From a virus (Duplodnaviria; Heunggongvirae; Uroviricota; Caudoviricetes): a DNA stretch of 16,617 nucleotides. This document shows positions 1 through 8,900 of this stretch, piece by piece. Below the pieces are notes generated by a model that saw only the letters and a program-made list of their open reading frames with translations, was not told the DNA's origin and ran no database searches. Each line of letters begins with the position of its first letter. Position 1 is the stretch's first letter. A program made the position numbers and the translations under genes. Location of the stretch: IMG/VR virus record IMGVR_UViG_2563366827_000001; one strand, given 5' to 3'.

Positions 1-238
1 AAAAGGTTGCTGCTACGATAATGCCTGCGTGGAAAGCTTCTTTCATTCGCTGAAAGTGGAATGTATCCATGGAGAACACTTTATCAGCCGGGAAATAATG
101 CGGGCAACGGTGTTTAATTATATCGAATGTGATTACAATCGGTGGCGGCGGCACAGTTGGTGTGGCGGCCTCAGTCCGGAACAATTTGAAAACAAGAACC
201 TCGCTTAGGCCTGTGTCCATATTACGTGGGTAGGATCA
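1..238 (+). mobile_element. Right end of an IS3-family insertion sequence (most likely IS3 itself), including the terminal inverted repeat ending ...ACGTGGGTAGGATCA at 238
   Basis: The transposase 3' end is followed about 30 bp later by a sequence ending TGTCCATATTACGTGGGTAGGATCA, which matches my recollection of the IS3 right terminus (TGATCC... when read inward). The element boundary is placed at 238. The 3-bp target duplication cannot be checked because the other end is outside the window. Confidence 0.8.
2..208 (+). CDS. IS3 transposase OrfB (InsF-like), C-terminal fragment; 5' end lies outside the window
   Basis: Frame 2 translates without stops to ...[66 protein letters not shown], stop TAG at 206-208. 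This carries the DDE-transposase C-terminal region (the conserved E in a YDNA...ESFF...LK.E context) typical of the IS3 family, and matches my recollection of the IS3 InsF C-terminus. Not in the supplied ORF track because it has no start codon inside the window. Confidence 0.85.
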
Positions 239-548
239 CTCCTCTCCGGAAACCAACTTCCGCCGCCAGTTCAACATCCCGCAACCACCTCAGGCGTTCA
301 GACTACAGTTCTGCCATGTCCCCATATCCCGGCTCGGTGCAAACATTCTGGTTTATCCGTCTAAAAATCCTTAATGTGTAGTGCTGTTGCAACGTCCACT
401 CTTGGCACATAGCAGTCCTAGAGACTGTGGCGTAAAGTCATGGAGGATCGGTGGGAGGAGATGCAAATCCTCCCATACAAAAAATACGTAAAATCGGTAA
501 CGGCTGGAAATCATTCAATACTCGCACTATCGAAAGTTCACCAGCCAA

Positions 549-592
549 CCGCAGCACGTCCTGCATACGTCGTGTCTGCGGTTTTTCTTTTT
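549..592 (+). terminator. Intrinsic-terminator-like hairpin plus T-run, oriented for plus-strand transcripts
   Basis: Stem CCGCAGCACG (549-558) pairs with CGTGTCTGCGG (571-581) with one bulge, followed by TTTTTCTTTTT (582-592). It is the first block of the left copy of the duplicated tfa-3' module. The T-run is on the plus strand, so it would not terminate the minus-strand tfa fragment. Confidence 0.4.
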
Positions 593-595
593 CGC

Positions 596-865
596 TTACA
601 TTGTGTCTGGTTCTTCCGGCCACTCAATATCAGGTGCAGTTGATGTATCAACACGGTTCAGCAACACCCGATATTTATTCCATGCCTCCAGCAACGATCT
701 TTCTTCCTCCGTTGCGATTTCCAGATCTACAGCATCCTGCAGTGGCGCAATATACTCACTGAATTCCTGGATGTAGAACTGTGTGGTGACGGTCTTCCAG
801 CCATTCGGCTCCTGCTGTATCGAAGCATACCAGGCTATTTCAATATCGCTATGCTGCGGCAGCAT
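596..865 (-). pseudogene. Tail fiber assembly protein remnant (5'-truncated tfa homolog, TfaX-like); intact 89-aa ORF
   Basis: The C-terminal 50 residues ([47 protein letters not shown]...) are near-identical to the C-terminus of the full tfa at 1645-2229. The N-terminal part is only weakly similar and the ORF is less than half the length of a normal Tfa. Has ATG at 863-865 with an AAGGGG Shine-Dalgarno 4 nt upstream, so it may still be translated. Confidence 0.55.
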
Positions 866-892
866 TTAACCCCTTGTAATTCATCGCCATAA

Positions 893-921
893 TTGATTTA
901 ATTCACAAATAAAACTATAAC
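893..921 (+). promoter_or_regulatory. Candidate sigma70 promoter for the methyltransferase gene (-35 TTGATT, 17-nt spacer, -10 TATAAC)
   Basis: TTGATT at 893-898 and TATAAC at 916-921 with a 17-nt spacer in an AT-rich stretch. The -10 abuts the first ATG (922), so transcription would start inside or just after it, implying a leaderless or short-leader mRNA that initiates at ATG 934. Pattern match only. Confidence 0.25.
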
Positions 922-1590
922 ATGGTGAAATTAATGAAAAAAAACACAGATGATGGGGCTAAAATTTACACACCACTTACCCTAAAGCTTTATGACTGGT
1001 GGGTTTTGGGAGTATCAAATCGGCTTGCATGGGGATGTCCTACAAAGGAACACCTTCTTCCACACTTTCTGGAACATTTAGGTAACAACCATCTGGATAT
1101 TGGTGTTGGAACTGGGTTTTACCTTACTCACGTACCTGAGAGTAGTCTGATATCTTTAATGGATTTGAACGAAGCTAGCCTGAACGCGGCATCTACAAGG
1201 GCTGGGGAATCAAAAATTAAACATAAAATTAACCATGATGTTTTTGAACCTTATCCCGCGGCGTTACATGGTCAATTTGATTCCATTTCCATGTTTTACC
1301 TTCTTCACTGTCTGCCTGGAAATATATCTACAAAAAGCTGTGTAATACGCAATGCGGCGCAGACCTTAACTGACGATGGAACTCTATACGGAGCCACAAT
1401 TCTTGGCGATGGAGTTGTGCACAATAGCTTCGGTCAAAAACTGATGCGCATTTACAATCAGAAAGGCATCTTTTCAAACACAAAAGATTCCGAAGAAGGC
1501 TTAACACATATACTCTCAGAGCATTTCGAGAATGTTAAAACCAAGGTTCAAGGTACTGTAGTAATGTTTTCCGCTTCAGGGAAAAAATAG
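922..1590 (+). CDS. Putative class I SAM-dependent methyltransferase (phage moron; resembles the ybcY-type gene of DLP12-like prophages)
   Basis: 222-aa ORF, visibly AT-richer than the flanking phage genes. Contains Rossmann motif I LDIGVGTGFY, an acidic end-of-beta2 residue (ISLMDLNE) and motif II/III-like FDSISMFYLLHCLP. No DPPY/NPPY or PCQ/ENV motifs, so not an obvious DNA methyltransferase. No Shine-Dalgarno before ATG 922; a second in-frame ATG is at 934. Confidence 0.75.
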   Translation: MVKLMKKNTDDGAKIYTPLTLKLYDWWVLGVSNRLAWGCPTKEHLLPHFLEHLGNNHLDIGVGTGFYLTHVPESSLISLMDLNEASLNAASTRAGESKIKHKINHDVFEPYPAALHGQFDSISMFYLLHCLPGNISTKSCVIRNAAQTLTDDGTLYGATILGDGVVHNSFGQKLMRIYNQKGIFSNTKDSEEGLTHILSEHFENVKTKVQGTVVMFSASGKK

Positions 1591-1597
1591 CATCCAA

Positions 1598-1630
1598 CCG
1601 CAGCACGTTCTTGCTTAAGACGTGCTGCGG
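1598..1630. terminator. Perfect 11-bp hairpin between the convergent methyltransferase and tfa genes (possible bidirectional terminator or structured element)
   Basis: CCGCAGCACGT (1598-1608) and ACGTGCTGCGG (1620-1630) form a perfect stem with an 11-nt loop, starting 8 nt after the methyltransferase stop and ending 15 nt before the tfa stop. No canonical T-run directly follows on either strand (the minus strand has TTTTTT about 10 nt away). It is the first block of the right copy of the duplicated module. Confidence 0.4.
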
Positions 1631-1644
1631 CATAATCCCAATGA

Positions 1645-2229
1645 TTACTCCCTGACAGGGTTCGTAGGCCACTCAATATCAGGTGCAGTTGATGTATCAA
1701 CACGGTTCAGCAACACCCGATACTTTTTCCAGGCTTCCAGCAATGAGGTTTCTTCCTCCGTTGCGATTTCCAGATCTACAGCATCCTGAAGTGGCGCAAT
1801 ATGCTCACTGGCTACCTGCATCAGGCTGTTTTTTGTTTCTTCCGCCTCCCGGATCCGGAACAGTTTTTCTGCTTCTGCATCTTTCACCCAGGCTGTGCCG
1901 TTCCACTTCTGAAACTCCCCTTCCGGCGATAACCAGGTAACATTTTCCGGTAACGGACCGAGTTCAGAAATAAATAACTCGTCCCCTGACGCTACGTCAT
2001 AAACCGTTTTACCCCGATGGTCTTCAACGAGATGCCACGATGCCTCATCACTGTTGAAAACAGCCACAAAGCCAGCAGGAATATCTGGTGGTGCAATATC
2101 GGTACTGTTTGCTGGCAGACCTGTATGAGGCGGAATATATGCGTCACCTTCACCAATAAATTCATTAGTTCCGGCCAGCAGATTATAAATTTTTATGGTC
2201 CGTGCTTGTTCACTCATTCTGAATGCCAT
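1645..2229 (-). CDS. tfa: Tail fiber assembly protein Tfa (lambda orf-194 type)
   Basis: 194-aa product [51 protein letters not shown]... matches lambda Tfa in length and sequence as I recall it. Its ATG overlaps the stf stop (TAATG), indicating translational coupling. Confidence 0.9.
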
Positions 2230-5189
2230 TATGCAAGCCTCACAATATAGTTAAATGCGATGTTTTTGACGGTGTTTTCCGCGTTACCAGCAGCGTTAAC
2301 GGTGATGGTGTGTCCATGTGAGCCAATCGCAACGGAGTGCGTATGAGCACCAATACCGACAGTATGTGCGTGTGCACCTGCGCTTGCAGCAGTGCCGGAC
2401 AGTGAGTGGGTATGCGCGCCAGCAGAGTTCGTATTCGCCATCGTGCCAATGCCCAGACCAACCGCCCCTTGTACCTGGTATGAGTTACTTCCGACAGCTG
2501 TAGAACCATACTGATAGGTGTCTTTAAAAGTGCTTGTATTAAACCTGCGACCATCAACGTGCGAGTGTGCTCCGGCCGAGCTTGTAGAGCCGCTCAGACT
2601 GTGCGTATGAGCCCCGGTGTTATTCGTGGATTTAGTGCCGTAATCAAACGACGATGTGGTTTTCGTCCCCAAATCCGTACTGGATGCGCTGGCGCTGTGG
2701 GTGTGCGATTTAATGCCGTCCTGTTCCTGAGACAATACGGCACGACCACTGGCGGGTTTGCCCTTAATCGTCCAGCCACGCATATCAGGGATCACGCCTG
2801 ACGGATAAGCGGCTGCAAGTTTCGGGTATGCAGATTTGTCAAAAGTCTGCCCCTGCATCAGGGCATAGCCAGACGGAACGGTATCTGATGGCCACGGGAT
2901 TGGTGCGCCAGGCGGATAAAACTGCTCTGATGGCGTATAGAGTGAATAAACTGTACCGTCCGTTAACCCTTCCGGCTTATTAGCAGAATATGCTGGTGAC
3001 GTATGAATCGTCACGCTGGCATTACTGGTATAATCCCATTGAATATTTACACCAGTCGCATAATTTCCGATTGCAACGTAAATATCGTAAGTATCACCAG
3101 ATGTATTGACCCAGGCAAAATTTGTAAACCCTGTCGATGTGCGCTGCCATAAAGCACCAGTAATCCCCTTCGGATTACCATTACCTGCACGCAAAACAAG
3201 TTCAGATATACCTGCCTGTTGAGGTGACCCCACGTTAAATCCCGCGCCACCAATCAACGTAATTGAAACAACAGAACTCGCCTGTGGCATGGTTACCGTT
3301 GCTAATTTGAACCAACCAGCACCACCGCTGAATGACATTGTTGTTGAGTTAAGCGTACCAATATCTTTCGGCGTCAGTGTTATATCCGCTGAAAGCGCCT
3401 TACCATTCACCTTACGGGCAGAAGGTACCCGACCATTCGCATTATCATTAGCTGCTTTCACTGCTTTCGGTGTCGCGGCAAGCGTTTCAGATGCGCTGTT
3501 GGTTGCACTACTGAGCTGGACAATTCCTTTTTGTGCTGTCGTAGCGTCCTGAGCGGTATATTTCCCGTTAGCAAGGTCATAGGCTGCCTTTACCGACTTT
3601 GGCGTTGCCGCCAGCATTTCAGATGTGCTGTTGGTCGCGCTGCTGAGCTGAACGATCCCTTTCTGTGCTGTCGTTGCATCCTGTGCGGTGTATTTCCCGT
3701 TAGCCAGGTCATACGCGGCCTTAACTGCTTTTGGCGTTGCCGCCAGTGACTCGGAAGTGCTGTTAGTCGCACTGCTGAGCTGTACTATCCCCTTTTTCGT
3801 CGTGCTCGCATCCTCAAGCGCCACGGCGGATGCAATATCCTCTGCCCGTTTAGCTGCTGTCTCGGCGCGCGTTGCCGCGGATTCCGCCGTACTTTTGCTC
3901 TGAGCTGCCGCCGTCGCACTGCCAGCTGCCTCTGTCGCCTTCGTGGATGCCGTCGTGGCGCTGCTCTTCGCTGCTGACGCCTGTCTGGTCGCCTCATCTT
4001 TTGAAGCAGACGCCGATGATGCCGATGACGCCGCCGAACTGGCTGACGATGCGGCAGCCGTTTTTGAGGATTCTGCGCTGGTTTCCGACGCTTTCGCGTT
4101 CGTTTCGGATGTCTTCGCTGCGGAAGCAGAACTCGCTGCTGCGCTGGCCTGTTCAGTGGCTTCGCCAGCCTTCGTTGTGGCTGTTGAAGCGGATGATGCG
4201 GCGCTTTCTGCCGATTTTCCGGCGGCGGTGGCACTGGCTGAGGCCTGCCCGGCACTTGTTGACGCGGCACTGGCAGACGACGCAGCCGCTGTTTTTGAGC
4301 CTGCCGCAGCTGAGGCGCTCTGTCCCGCTGCCGTCTCAGAAGACTTAGCGTTCGTCTCGGACGTTTTTGCCGCCTTCGCGGAATTTCCTGCCGCCGTTGC
4401 CGAGGAAGCGGCACTACTGGCGCTTGATGATGCGTTCGTTTCTGATGATTTTGCCGCTTCTTTTGAAGCCGACGCATCCCGGGCTGAGGTGGCAGCTTCT
4501 GACGCTTTCGTGGTCGCGGTGGATGCAGAAGTGGCTGCTGATTGTTGTGACGCTGCCGCATTCGTTTCTGACGTTTTCGCCGCAGCGGCACTGGTGGCCG
4601 CCGCGCTTTTTGAGGACTCTGCAGCGGCAGCACTTTTTTCCGCTTCAGTGGCCTTTGTTGATGCCGTTCCTGCGCTGGAAGACGCTGACTGAGCCGACGA
4701 CGCGGCCTGTCCGGCTGACGTGCTGGCTGCGCGTGCTGAGCCTGCAGCATCAGTCGCATGGGTTGCCGCCTCACGGGCTGATGTGCTGGCATCGCTGGCT
4801 GACTTCTTCGCGGCTGCCGTGTTCTGTGCCACCGCGGACGCGTTACGCGCCACCTCTTCCACCATCAGTTCAAAACGGCGCAGTGCCTCAGGACGGGCAT
4901 CATCCTCCGTCATGGCACCGAGAAAATCATTCAGCGTACCGGGTCGGGAATCTTCATACACGGTGATGGTCCCGGCATGTGACGGCGGGAAGCCTTCCAC
5001 CAACAGAATAACGCTGTACTGACCGTACTCAACGTCCATGCTGTAACGCCCGGCTTCATCCGGATTTTCTGAGGCCAGCGTGTTCACCACCACCGTGGTA
5101 CTGTTACGTTTTGCTTTCAGCTGGATTGTGCAGTTCTGTACCGGTTTTCCTGTGCCGTCTTTCAGTACACCTGAAATCTTTACTGCCAT
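2229..5189 (-). CDS. stf: Side tail fiber protein Stf (long lambda-Stf-like variant, about 986 aa)
   Basis: N-terminus [26 protein letters not shown]... matches the lambda Stf N-terminus. Followed by a long Ala/Ser/Thr-rich low-complexity region, three tandem repeats of about 44 aa ([42 protein letters not shown]), and a C-terminal tip with GAHTHSLSG / [31 protein letters not shown] HxH repeats ending [11 protein letters not shown]. The track ORF begins at GTG 5195; I place the start at ATG 5187-5189. Confidence 0.9.
3430..3800 (-). repeat. Three tandem repeats of about 130 bp inside stf (coding for the 44-aa tail-fiber repeat)
   Basis: Near-identical DNA blocks such as GTATTTCCCGTTAGC.AGGTCATA.GC.GCCTT.ACTG.TTTTGGCGTTGCCGCCAG recur three times, corresponding to the [15 protein letters not shown]... 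protein repeats. In-frame and coding, not a CRISPR array. Confidence 0.7.
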
Positions 5190-5200
5190 ATTCACCCCAC

Positions 5201-5923: not shown

Positions 5924-8900
5924 TCAACGAATACTGATACCGGAAGCCGCTTTTTTGGTCACAATCACCGTACAGTCGGTGATATTCCCTGCCCCCTGAT
6001 TGCCTTTCTGGAAAATCTTAAACTCCAGAGTGACGCTACCACCACCACTAGGCATATCAATAACTGCACTGTAACTACCGGGAATGGCCCCTTTAGTTTC
6101 TCTGGATGCGATTAATACACCGTTTTTGCGAACTTCAAAACCATAACCCGTGTATCTTGTACCTCCCGGGTTATTACCACTTCCCGGATCGCTATACGCT
6201 ATTCCGTTAAAGATAATGGGCGGAATAATGATTTGACGGTCAAAGTTATGATCATCGCTGATGGTGACTGTAACCGTCCCGTTTGGTGTTTCCGTATTAC
6301 CCCACGTACCAGCCTGTTTCGGGAATGATTTGGATACAGCTTTAACGAAGTCACCTCTGACCTGAGTCGCCTCCAGCATGCCCTTAATCGTACAGTTTTC
6401 ATTTACCGTGACATTGTTGAGCGTCCCGGCGTTCGCATTCACTCTGCCACTGATATCCGCATTTTTAGCGGTCAGCTTTCCGTCTGATGTCAGGGAAAAT
6501 ACCGGAGGACTGCCACCGCTGGTAATGGTGGGGGCTGTCAGGCGCTTCAGGAACACGTCGTTCATGAATATCTGGTTGCCCTGCGCCACAAACATCGGCG
6601 TTTCATTCCCGTTTGCCGGGTCAATAAACGCGATACGGTTAGCGGCAACCAGAAACTGGCTCAGCTTGCCTTCCTCCGTGTCCTCCATGCTGAGGCCAAT
6701 ACCCGCGACATAATGTTTGCCGTCTTTGGTCTGCTCAATTTTGACGCCCCACATGGCATTCCATTTATCGTTAGCGTCCTTCCACTCTTTCGAAAACTCA
6801 TCCAGTCTGCTGGCGTTATCCTCCGTCAAATCAACTTTTTCCAGCAGCTCTTTACCGAGATGGGATTCGGTTATCTTGCCTTTGAAAAAATCCAGGTAAC
6901 CTTCCGCATCATCGCTCGCCCGACCGACGCCCTCCACGAATGCCGATTTGCCAACGGTGTTCACACTGCGGATATAAAAGTAATAATCATGGCCCGGTTT
7001 GATATTGATACTGGCGGCTATCCAGTACAGCGCCGTACCAAGATAGCGGGCTGTGGTTTCAACCTGCCTGATATCGGTAATCCGCTTTTCCGAGAACCAG
7101 AACTCAAACTGTACCGTCGGGTCATAAACGGCAAGATGCGGCGTGGCGGTTATCTGAAAATAGCCCGGCGTCAGCTCAATCCTCGACGGTGCTGCCGGTG
7201 CGGCAATCCGGAACGATACCGACGCCGGATCGCCCTGCTGCCCCCACGCATTTACCGCCCGGACTGTCAGCCTGTAGTTCCCCAGCGCCAGTTGCGTGAA
7301 GCGGTATGTGGTTTCCGTCGTCCGGGCCGTGCTGACCAGCCGCTCACTGCCGTCATCCGCTGTTACGGTCAGACGGAGCAGGAAGCTCACGCCCTTCACC
7401 ACCTTCGGCGTGTCCCAGCGCGCCAGCACCTGATATTCCCCGCTGTCTGCGGTGACTTCGGCGGTCAGGTGCTGCACCGCTGGCGGCGTGACACCATTCA
7501 CCGTGCCGCTCTGGTCGCCGTCAAAGTGCGCCCCGTTATCCACGATGGCTTCTTTTTCCGGTACATGCTGCACGGCAGTGATGGCATACGTGCCGTCATC
7601 GTTATCACGGATACTCACACAGCGGAACAGGCGCTGACGCAACGTCGGCAACTTCAGCCCCCACACACTGTATTCTGCAACGCCGTCAGGAACCCGGTTC
7701 ACTTTCACCTTAAGTCCGTCGGTGACGGACTGAACCTCCACGCTGACCGGATTACCACTTCCGTCAACCAGGCTTATCAGCGTGGTACCGGAGGATGGCA
7801 GCGTGATTTCACGGTCGAGCGTCAGCGTCCGGGTCTGGCTGTTCACCGCCAGCACGCGACCACCGGTGCTGATACCGGCATAGTCATCATCGAAGATTTC
7901 AATAACATCGCCCGGTACATGGCGAAGCCCTTCAGCACCCACGCTGAAATCCACGGTCTGCGTCTCCAGCAGTTCCGTTTTAATCAGCCACAGCCCGGCG
8001 CGGTGTGCCTGCCCCCGGCTGGTACAGCCAAAGGCATCCATCTTCGTGACATTACGACCGTAACGGGCAATGGCCTGCGTATCTTCAACAAGCTCTGTCG
8101 CCGTCTCCCAGCCGTTGTTCGGGTCAATCCAGTTCACCTCAACGGCATTATGGCGGTCCTTCAGGGCGCTGAAGCTGTAGCGGAACGGCGCGCCATCATC
8201 CGGCATCACCACATTACTGCGGTTATAGGTCCACACCTTATCTGATGGTCGGTCCTGCACGAACGTCAGCGTCTGCCCGTTCCATACCGGCATACAGCGC
8301 ATCGCCGAGCAGAAATCACTGAGCACATCCCACGCCTTGCGCTGTGTGGTCAGGTATGCATTACAGGTGATGCGCGGCTCCGTGCCGCCAAAGCCGTCCG
8401 GTACTGACTGGTCGCAGTACTGGCCGATGACATACAGCGCCCATTTGTCCACATCCGCCGCACCAAGACGTTTCCCCATGCCGTAGCGTGGATGGGTCAG
8501 CATATCCCACAGACACCAGGCCATGTTGTTGCTGTATGCCGGTTTAAACGTTCCGTCCCAGATACCGCTGTATTGCCGCGTCTGCGGGTTATAATTCGAC
8601 GGCACCTGCAGAATACGCCCGCGCAGATGATAATTACGGCTCACCTGCTGGCTGCCGAACTGCTCCGAGTCCACCTGCACGCCGACCAGTGCCGTGTTCG
8701 GGTAGCACTGTTTCACATCGATAATTTCGGTGTATGACGACCAGAGCGTTTTGTTCTGCAGCTGGTCTGTGGTGCTGTCCGGCGTCATCCTGCGCATCCG
8801 GATATTAAACGGGCGCGGCGGCAGGTTATCCACCACCACCGAGGCCAGATACTGCGAGGTGGTTTTGCCCTTAATGGTGATGTCTTTTTCCGTCACCCAG

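Follow-up and report, generated by a model that had tools for sequence, protein, structure and literature searches.

A methyltransferase gene bracketed by two tfa 3′ ends in a lambda-like prophage

Near the left end of the window (the whole 16,617-nt stretch of DNA analysed here), a methyltransferase gene is bracketed by two direct repeats, each joining a stem-loop to the 3′ end of a tail-fibre assembly gene (tfa). This raises the question of how a cargo gene came to be flanked by two such ends, and whether the repeats serve to move it. The first-pass annotation suggested that the arrangement could arise from serial cassette insertion by homologous recombination at the tfa 3′ end. Our analysis indicates that the layout is an ordinary one, already annotated in Escherichia coli K-12 as tfaD-ybcY-tfaX, and that it is explained by phage mosaic recombination; very probably, the locus as a whole reflects lambdoid mosaicism, with a moron situated between a working tfa and the relic 3′ end of another. 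The features to which the text refers are as follows.

1–238, + strand: 3′ end of IS3, with the transposase C-terminus (ORF 29–208) and the right terminal repeat
239–401: orphan C-rich segment of 163 bp, between the IS3 end and the L flank
402–541: "L flank", a conserved non-coding segment of about 140 bp, containing a GGGAGGA...TCCTCCC stem
542–581: stem-loop A (stem 549–581), 3′ of the relic tfa; pattern match, fold −19 kcal/mol, z = −3.75
596–865, − strand: tfa′ remnant, a 5′-truncated second tfa (89-aa ORF); repeated block 618–772
866–933, + strand: methyltransferase upstream region, with TTAACC-16-CATAAT (866–893) and GGTGA 5 nt before ATG 934
922–1590, + strand: YbcY-family class I SAM-dependent methyltransferase (222 aa from 922), convergent with tfa
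1591–1630: stem-loop B (stem 1598–1630), 3′ of the intact tfa, between the convergent tfa and methyltransferase genes
1645–2229, − strand: tfa, intact lambda-type tail-fibre assembly gene (194 aa); repeated block 1667–1821
2229–5195, − strand: stf, side tail fibre gene (988 aa), the upstream partner of tfa

Anatomy of the repeats and the cargo gene

The direct repeat consists of two parts separated by the same offset of 1049 bp: (i) a block of 155 nt (618–772 and 1667–1821) with 92% identity (BLAST E=1e-60), and (ii) the stem-loop segments 542–581 and 1591–1630, with 83–90% identity, within which CCAACCGCAGCACG is found at 545–558 and again at 1594–1607. Between stem-loop and block lie spacers of 36 nt (582–617 and 1631–1666), which are unrelated in the two copies and comprise the final 6–7 codons and the stop codon of the respective tfa. 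The repeats originally placed at about 546–770 and 1594–1810 are therefore real, but they do not form one continuous unit of about 220 bp; pairwise alignment did confirm that there is similarity beyond the tfa coding block, in the stem-loops. The methyltransferase, described as lying exactly between the repeats, does lie between them (ORF 922/934–1590), but is separated from the left one by non-repeated sequence (773–921), composed of tfa-remnant DNA and the methyltransferase upstream region. No inverted repeat linking the two tfa units was found. Chi-stimulated recombination was considered and set aside, the window containing no Chi site.

Both repeats were correctly recognized as tfa 3′ ends; the block encodes, on the minus strand, the Tfa C-terminus (Pfam Caudo_TAP). 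The right-hand ORF (1645–2229) spans positions 1–130 of the 131 of this profile (PF02413, E=2.7e-45) and has 91.5% nucleotide identity to lambda orf-194/tfa. The left-hand ORF (596–865), assigned to PHROG 2341, covers only profile positions 75–130, with residues 31–86 matching the Tfa family, and is thus a fragment rather than a functional member of it. Stop codons directly precede its first Met, and its upstream half (773–865) is unrelated to the intact tfa at the matching position. In the phage collection we found no full-length parent of tfa′, only the same fragment or distant Tfa proteins. The two blocks differ at 13 of 155 positions, mostly synonymous ones, which suggests that the copies diverged as working genes. 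By alignment and reading frame, the left copy is a decaying, 5′-truncated relic that derives from another, older allele of tfa. In relatives, tfa′ decays while the methyltransferase remains intact, and numerous variants of tfa′ are truncated, frameshifted or carry a swapped tail; on these grounds, a role as a functional mini-chaperone was rejected.

The adjoining stf has Pfam phage_tail_N, Phage_fiber_2 and Collar matches (in RefSeq, "prophage tail fiber N-terminal domain-containing protein"). The Rfam candidate sRNA RF02111 ("IS009") matches the minus strand at 1688–1886 (229.5 bits) and 639–842 (115.4 bits), coordinates that cover the repeated tfa 3′ coding region. The matching sequence is protein-coding tfa or its relic, with no sign of a separate RNA gene, and the IS009 family itself apparently represents the coding sequence of tfa.

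The cargo gene (RefSeq label "class I SAM-dependent methyltransferase") is named YbcY in phage PhiR26_1. Among Pfam families, Methyltransf_12 (37.7 bits against a cut-off of 30), Methyltransf_23 and Methyltransf_11 reach their cut-offs, and Methyltransf_25 scores exactly at its own (27 vs 27). PHROG 2132, annotated as unknown function, begins its profile match at residue 5 of the ORF counted from 922. Translation probably starts at 934, behind the putative promoter and GGTGA start signal; a consensus scan of 1–2400 gave 4 promoter-like sites, against 4.1 expected from shuffled sequence. PDB sequence matches are weak (UbiG and juvenile-hormone acid methyltransferase, E about 1.5e-3) and no NCBIfam family matched; the gene was rejected as a defence-system member, the PADLOC match being only marginal (E=0.0026). 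The reading frame is intact in 89 of 92 loci, its variant codons comprise 25 synonymous and 18 non-synonymous ones, and its identity across E. coli, Shigella and E. albertii is 98% or more; on its codon pattern, the gene is under purifying selection. Homologues with 61–64% identity are found in Enterobacter chromosomes, outside prophages. The GC content is 0.375–0.445 across 801–1600, compared with 0.47–0.52 on both flanks, and the cargo is absent from otherwise colinear relatives (lambda and the loci L096, L149, L166 and L167, which have the same flanks). By its low GC content, its independent orientation and its distribution, the methyltransferase qualifies as a moron.

Across the 16.6 kb of the window there are exactly two matches to the pattern CCGCAG-N15-30-CTGCGG, where 0.04 would be expected. 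Both hairpins belong to the family found 3′ of lambda tfa, and fold with −19 to −27 kcal/mol (z = −2.8 to −5.3); stem-loop B reaches −23.9 on the plus and −27.2 kcal/mol on the minus strand (z about −5). Other tfa alleles carry unrelated GC-rich hairpins at the same position. The two copies had been described as differing in loop and 3′ arm, from which selection on structure was proposed. The loops do differ, but the 3′ arms are nearly alike (CGTGTCTGCGG vs CGTGCTGCGG, with a one-base bulge). Since only the loops differ, there are no covarying pairs within the window, and selection on structure is not inferable from two copies. Wider comparison gives modest support for covariation: in 17 distinct variants, 94.7% of cells are paired, compensatory change affects 2 of 11 hairpin pairs (3 cells), and the covariation score exceeds 500 of 500 shuffles, the sequences compared being related to one another.

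On the plus strand, TTTTTCTTTTT comes directly after hairpin A, which thus resembles a terminator for transcription running rightwards. This is the only canonical T-run; hairpin B is without a T-tract on the plus strand and has only a distal one on the minus strand. A terminator scan called neither, as both loops are longer than the 8 nt it allows. The likeliest role of the stem-loops would be that of terminators or 3′-end stabilisers where the convergent transcription units meet.

To the left, positions 1–238 are 100% identical to the IS3-like element IS3 family transposase of thousands of E. coli records; this IS3 end abuts the cargo region and lies outside the repeat structure. Searches of complete E. 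coli genomes (in near and distant modes) and of plasmids gave no match to the orphan segment (239–401), nor did exact-pattern scans of viral and metagenome contigs; the segment is not a shuffle of the Rb-50 flank either. The L flank, which has no Rfam match, lies directly beyond the tfa stem-loop in cargo-less relatives and adjoins the tfa hairpin in six related loci, further left of which the DNA differs. A tRNA or att remnant in the flank was dismissed, as ARAGORN found none and Rfam gave IS009 only.

Related loci and the case for a cassette system

The tfa-methyltransferase-tfa′ trio was found in no fewer than 1099 of the 5426 complete E. coli genomes (about a fifth), and viable phages such as PhiR26_1 also carry it. 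We compared about 90 related loci, of which approximately 88 carry the methyltransferase and have an alignment spanning its junction with tfa′. This junction is constant in all aligned loci except L042, whose homology with the window begins only at 880 and runs rightwards, and its constancy points to a single founding event.

The immediate neighbours of the methyltransferase are likewise kept across the set, while the outer contexts vary. Homology breaks at the hairpin edge (1630/1636), in block B (1742, 1764, 1790), and in or at block A (595–641). There are 22 distinct right-hand junction types. The 231-bp unit 1591–1821 contains 8 of them, the remaining 408 bp of tfa 4, and a 1433-bp stretch of stf 10; on the left, about 8 of 12 types are in or at the edge of the repeat unit. 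Per base pair this is an approximately 3.5–5-fold enrichment in the repeat unit, where breakpoints are defined relative to this one window and counts are of loci rather than independent events, a problem that is lessened, though not abolished, by clustering according to flank. Hairpin variant, tail/spacer type of tfa (A, B or lambda) and L flank assort independently, and both flank types are found as single-copy tfa ends in other phages. The outer context of the cargo is not fixed, and many junctions fall inside the repeats, in partial support of the exchange that the first-pass annotation had supposed.

Comparison of relatives also bore out the expectation of alternative cargo at this position. 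The same tfa is followed in relatives by cdtABC, a reverse transcriptase, a Pin invertase, McrBC-like genes, sitABCD or an uncharacterised two-gene module, and in one locus (L013) the methyltransferase is separated from a different tfa by ipaH. L014 carries as many as three tfa 3′ ends in series, with different cargo between them. The methyltransferase cassette was also identified in a Nesevirus (2G7b), where it is flanked on both sides by tfa remnants only, and in a Mu-like prophage.

Precise loss of the cargo through the repeats, also proposed, is possible in principle: the two copies are identical over runs of 56 and 40 bp, and L149 is a natural chimera of the form that such a deletion would yield. 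On the other hand, no near-identical derivative (at least 99% identity in both flanks) was found among the 5426 genomes, the best single-piece cargo-less match to the prophage having 94.6% identity. In the absence of a recent derivative, repeat-mediated loss is inferred, not observed.

Much of this could be taken as the signature of a dedicated homology-flanked cassette system, in which tfa 3′ end and hairpin form a selected handle for serial insertion, swapping and precise excision of cargo. The excess of junctions in the repeat unit, the occurrence of the cassette in lambda-like, Nesevirus and Mu-like backgrounds, the serial ends of L014 and the long exact runs are all in keeping with it. 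However, Tfa protein function explains why the block is conserved: a C-terminal segment of about 55 aa is common to P2 G, Mu U and P1 U, and the differences are mostly synonymous. Other cargo does not sit between two tfa ends, L161 and L162 having the distal hairpin only; many junctions fall outside the repeats, in stf, with breakpoints spread through the homology; and a single methyltransferase/tfa′ junction in all copies speaks for one founding event. Finally, the repeats are direct, no deletion variant was seen, and no recombinase-like ORF was noticed among window ORFs of at least 90 aa (by listing, with four proteins Pfam-scanned). We thus consider a dedicated system improbable, and what stands of the serial-insertion proposal is generic, homology-driven exchange at the tfa 3′ end. 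It is also unlikely, though worth stating, that the tfa 3′ block and stem-loop (possibly with the L flank) constitute a selected portable handle that moves the highly conserved YbcY methyltransferase among phage families unrelated to one another; if so, the enzyme would have an important function of benefit to the lysogen. A site-specific, integron-like hairpin site is unsupported, as no recombinase was noticed among those ORFs and the junctions are dispersed.

Origin of the second tfa end

Lambdoid mosaicism accounts for the locus as follows. The region closes the late (tail) operon of a lambda-like prophage at its distal end, a place in which accessory morons accumulate. The right repeat comprises the 3′ end of the working tfa and the stem-loop that follows tfa in lambda, and the left repeat the 3′ end and stem-loop of a different, older allele that has lost its 5′ half. 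Most likely, the methyltransferase entered together with the present stf-tfa-stem-loop module. As a reconstruction from sequence, we propose that the founding event combined one crossover in homologous tail genes with one illegitimate exchange inside the resident tfa, leaving the relic. Such replacement of a tail-fibre module fits the left copy better than the serial cassette insertion first suggested, given its unrelated upstream half, the mostly synonymous differences in its core and its many decayed variants.

Because the Tfa C-terminal block is conserved by protein function, the block and the adjacent stem-loop serve as shared homology. Through it, general recombination (RecA or phage Red/RecET) has very probably re-joined the methyltransferase module time and again, to various tail-fibre modules at one end and to various downstream DNA at the other. 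In principle, an in-frame deletion of the 1049-bp unit could arise in the same way, an event that we did not observe.

Two further explanations have very little probability. Duplication in situ, by insertion of the methyltransferase into a single tfa with target-site-like or slippage-derived doubling of its 3′ end, would agree with the direct orientation and with the identical register of hairpin and block. It is contradicted by the unrelated spacers with their tfa C-terminal tails, by the unrelated upstream half of the remnant, by the mostly synonymous nature of the 13 block differences, and by the existence of both flank types as single-copy tfa ends in other phages. Equally remote is a host-range switch in which the extra tfa piece would be an alternative chaperone/fibre module, brought into use by site-specific inversion or recombination (cf. 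the G segment of Mu, C of P1 and P of e14). Although Pin/Gin-type invertases occur beside tfa in L003, L161 and L042, we rejected a switch of invertible or shufflon type: the two repeats are in direct orientation, with no inverted repeat linking the units, no invertase ORF was noticed among the tail-gene-sized ORFs of the window (four proteins Pfam-scanned), and tfa′, which decays in relatives, has neither an N-terminal half nor a partner fibre segment.

Comparison with known systems

The locus reveals the relic of a replaced tail-fibre chaperone gene bracketing a moron, which matters little beyond housekeeping. It does illustrate cleanly how the mosaic junctions of lambdoid phages cluster in a conserved coding block and its terminator-like hairpin, and the apparent protein-coding nature of the Rfam IS009 family is a practical point. 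YbcY, a widespread, intact and selectively constrained prophage methyltransferase, could merit a functional test. Within the literature on ybcY/tfaX, morons near tfa and tail-fibre-distal hotspots, we found no paper describing the repeats as cassette flanks; the ompT-ybcY adjacency has been noted in UPEC (PMC6854850).

The closest known arrangement is that of the K-12 cryptic prophage DLP12 (NC_000913), in which tfaD-ybcY-tfaX agrees with the window in its three elements, their order and their orientation, and which aligns contiguously over 1465 bp with window positions 619–2083 (97.6% identity). Stem-loop B is kept there between tfaD and ybcY, and tfaX is the counterpart of tfa′; the locus then continues into appY and ompT. 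In K-12, however, tfaD is 5′-truncated, ybcY is a pseudogene and tfaX is without the A-type 3′ end and hairpin, whereas the window has intact tfa and methyltransferase genes together with stf, and IS3 disrupts its distal side.

In lambda itself, a stem-loop of the same family occupies the corresponding position between the convergent tfa and ea47 genes (NC_001416, about 22573–22606), and shows one compensatory change of C:G to A:U. Homology with lambda begins at the edge of stem-loop B (window 1596). Unlike the window, lambda has neither the methyltransferase nor a second tfa end, and ea47 of the b region lies beyond the hairpin.

Morons and mosaic module boundaries are an established concept for lambdoid phages (Juhala, Hendrix), and effector-carrying loci lie distal to the tail-fibre genes in O157 prophages. 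The methyltransferase resembles lambdoid morons in being an extra gene of lower GC content, with its own orientation, a putative promoter and a hairpin, at a position that accepts many kinds of cargo. It differs in that the cargo is bracketed by two homologous tfa 3′ ends, because the relic of the replaced tfa has been retained. Tail-fibre and tfa segments have been exchanged horizontally among P2, Mu, P1 and lambda, as reportedly shown by Haggard-Ljungquist in 1992 and Sandmeier in 1994. The likeness lies in the conserved Tfa C-terminal block, which is common to unrelated phages and coincides with junctions; those studies concern host-range modules, whereas in the window a cargo gene with no structural role is bordered by this homology as well.

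Direct tfa repeats and the truncated tfa relic

A repeat search and BLAST revealed that the YbcY-family methyltransferase gene lies between two 155-nt direct repeats (block A, 618-772, and block B, 1667-1821; 92% identity, E=1e-60), which with small corrections bears out the first-pass annotation. A second pair, the hairpins at 542-581 and 1591-1630 (83-90% identity), shows the same offset of 1049 bp, but the 36 nt separating hairpin from block are unrelated between the left and right copies. The repeats are indeed tfa 3′ ends; the right ORF contains the full Caudo_TAP domain and the left one a C-terminal remnant of it.

Layout of the left end of the window
1-238, + strand reading: 3′ end of IS3
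239-401: orphan segment, 163 bp
402-541: L flank, conserved, non-coding
542-581: stem-loop A
596-865, − strand: ORF of 89 aa, tfa′ remnant (Caudo_TAP, last 56 profile positions only)
922-1590, + strand: methyltransferase, 222 aa (Pfam Methyltransf_12/23/25/11; PHROG 2132)
1591-1630: stem-loop B
1645-2229, − strand: tfa (tail-fibre assembly), 194 aa (Caudo_TAP full length, E=2.7e-45)
2229-5195: stf, 988 aa

The partial Caudo_TAP match of the ORF at 596-865, together with stop codons immediately upstream of its first Met, identifies it as a 5′-truncated tfa remnant (tfa′), whose C-terminal approx. 55 residues correspond to the Tfa portion common to lambda Tfa, P2 G, Mu U and P1 U. Most codon differences between the blocks are synonymous, a sign that the two copies diverged as working genes; this, and the lack of relationship between the upstream part of the remnant and intact tfa, excludes duplication in situ. 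In related loci the tfa′ ORF carries many truncations, frameshifts and swapped tails; 89 of 92 loci retain an intact methyltransferase (variant codons: 25 synonymous versus 18 non-synonymous). The relic is decaying, while the cargo is maintained.

The Rfam candidate sRNA RF02111 (‘IS009’) matched the tfa 3′ coding region (1688-1886, − strand; 229.5 bits) and the relic copy (639-842, − strand; 115.4 bits, slightly below the 117-bit gathering score). What the family describes seems to be coding sequence of tfa and not a separate RNA gene.

Hairpins and the left flank

The pattern CCGCAG-N15-30-CTGCGG occurs at only two sites, the two repeat hairpins (0.04 expected), and both fold far better than shuffled sequences. 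Their loops are divergent, as first described, but the 3′ arms, also thought to differ, are distinguished by a one-base bulge only. Selection on the structure had been suggested as well; alignment of the two copies shows no covarying pairs. Among 17 distinct CCGCAG...CTGCGG variants from tfa 3′ flanks, 94.7% of cells are paired and two pairs have both sides changed (the notable case being C:G to A:U in lambda-type variants). The covariation score is above that of all shuffles, but the relatedness of the sequences limits its weight. In other tfa alleles the same position is occupied by unrelated GC-rich hairpins, which fits a putative role as a terminator or 3′-end element between convergent genes; of the two hairpins, A alone is followed by a canonical T-run, and this on the + strand.

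The L flank (approx. 140 bp) recurs 3′ of the tfa hairpin in several prophages that differ in other respects (L085, L162, L163, L166, L167 and L151, the last representing five identical copies). Within it lies a GGGAGGA...TCCTCCC stem, in whose 3′ arm variation is limited to C-to-T changes, so that G:U pairs would be kept if the + strand is transcribed. Rfam and tRNA searches with the flank gave no match; it is possibly an RNA element.

The IS3 copy terminates 163 bp short of the L flank, at a place where relatives carry a DinI-like gene or other cargo. DNA distal to the cargo region was probably removed or displaced by IS3. Searches of 5426 E. coli genomes (near and distant modes) and of PLSDB plasmids found no counterpart of the C-rich segment between IS3 and the L flank (57 C, 28 G), nor did exact-pattern scans of viral and metagenome contigs detect it; derivation by shuffling of the closest relative's flank was rejected.

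Exchange of partners among related loci

We compared 80 viral contigs that carry the methyltransferase gene (aa identity of 98% or more throughout), together with a small number of genomic loci. The methyltransferase/tfa′ junction is identical in all aligned loci except the Mu-like prophage L042, where homology begins at 880, beside a Gin-type invertase. There (L042 4264-6068), the cassette (window 880-1742) lies between the full-length invertase gene and a copy of its first 66 codons, which indicates that insertion was accompanied by partial duplication of the invertase 5′ end.

To the right, 26 loci lose homology to the window at the outer border of hairpin B (1630/1636), 32 within block B (1742/1764/1790), 5 elsewhere in tfa and 23 in stf; to the left, homology stops at 479-525 in 39 loci, at 595-617 in 11 and at 618-641 in 30. 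Because loci cannot be counted as independent events, clustering of the sequence past each breakpoint was used to define distinct junction types, 22 on the right and 12 on the left. The repeat unit (231 bp) accounts for 8 of the right-hand types, the other 408 bp of tfa for 4 and 1433 bp of stf for 10. In a multi-way alignment three features assorted independently: L flank, hairpin variant and type of tfa tail/spacer (A, B or lambda). The tfa of locus L149 combines B-type block alleles at diagnostic sites with an A-type tail, hairpin A and the A flank, the shape expected from an inter-repeat crossover. In phage 2G7b the fibre gene preceding the cassette is unrelated, and all that is left of tfa to the right is a remnant of 32 codons. 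In L014, three tfa 3′ ends follow one another, the second and third separated by ompT, a hydrolase gene and an integrase remnant.

Other cargo was found 3′ of tfa genes with 95% or higher identity to that of the window: Pin invertase (L161, L165), reverse transcriptase (L136), cdtABC for cytolethal distending toxin (L150 6958-9166), sitABCD (L125), McrBC-like genes (L144) and a two-gene module of unknown function (L162). In L013, probably a Shigella prophage, the methyltransferase is separated from a different tfa by an IpaH-type LRR/E3-ligase effector gene (5985-7628). The anticipated alternative cargo exists distal to tfa, but is not bracketed by two tfa ends. Cargo-less loci, with the L flank immediately after tfa and its hairpin, are frequent in E. 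coli (24 of the best 25 matches are single-piece). None of the matches listed is a near-identical cargo-less derivative of this prophage (best 94.6%), and recent repeat-mediated deletion was thus not observed.

Of the recombination originally proposed, exchange within the repeats has repeatedly changed the partners of the module, but not by a specialised cassette mechanism: the locus reflects general, homology-driven lambdoid mosaicism acting on a moron, whose bracketing is incidental, a relic of a replaced tfa happening to lie on one side.

The cargo and known counterparts

The cargo gene encodes a class I SAM methyltransferase (PHROG 2132 is annotated as unknown function). In sequence searches of PDB it matched UbiG and juvenile-hormone acid methyltransferase weakly; NCBIfam has no model for it, and the PADLOC match was no more than marginal. 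The gene is lower in GC (0.38-0.44) than its flanks (0.47-0.52). Enterobacter homologues of the methyltransferase (61-64% identity; L175, L177-L179) are chromosomal, outside prophages and with no tfa nearby, which is consistent with host-gene capture and makes them candidate ancestors; their neighbours, named by eye, are presumably housekeeping genes (oligopeptidase A for the long ORF of L175, mtfA-like in L177-L179). Genes 97-99% identical to the E. coli one also occur on short MAG contigs (L169, L176, L181) binned as Bacillus, Planococcaceae and Segatella copri, most likely because prophage DNA of E. coli contaminated the bins.

Among 5426 complete E. coli genomes, at least 1099 have no less than 80% of the 240-2300 region in one place, UTI89, S88, APEC O1 and the type strain among them. 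Stf-Tfa-YbcY-Tfa′ is also carried by viable phages, e.g. PhiR26_1. A UPEC study reported that ompT adjoins ybcY in many strains (PMC6854850).

The tfa of lambda is 91.5% identical to that of the window, and a stem-loop of the same family separates it from the convergent ea47; in contrast to the window, lambda lacks cargo, and homology between the two starts exactly at the hairpin. The DLP12 prophage of E. coli K-12 aligns contiguously with 619-2083 (97.6%); its ybcY is a pseudogene on the opposite strand. The locus is therefore already known, having long been annotated in K-12 as tfaD-ybcY-tfaX.
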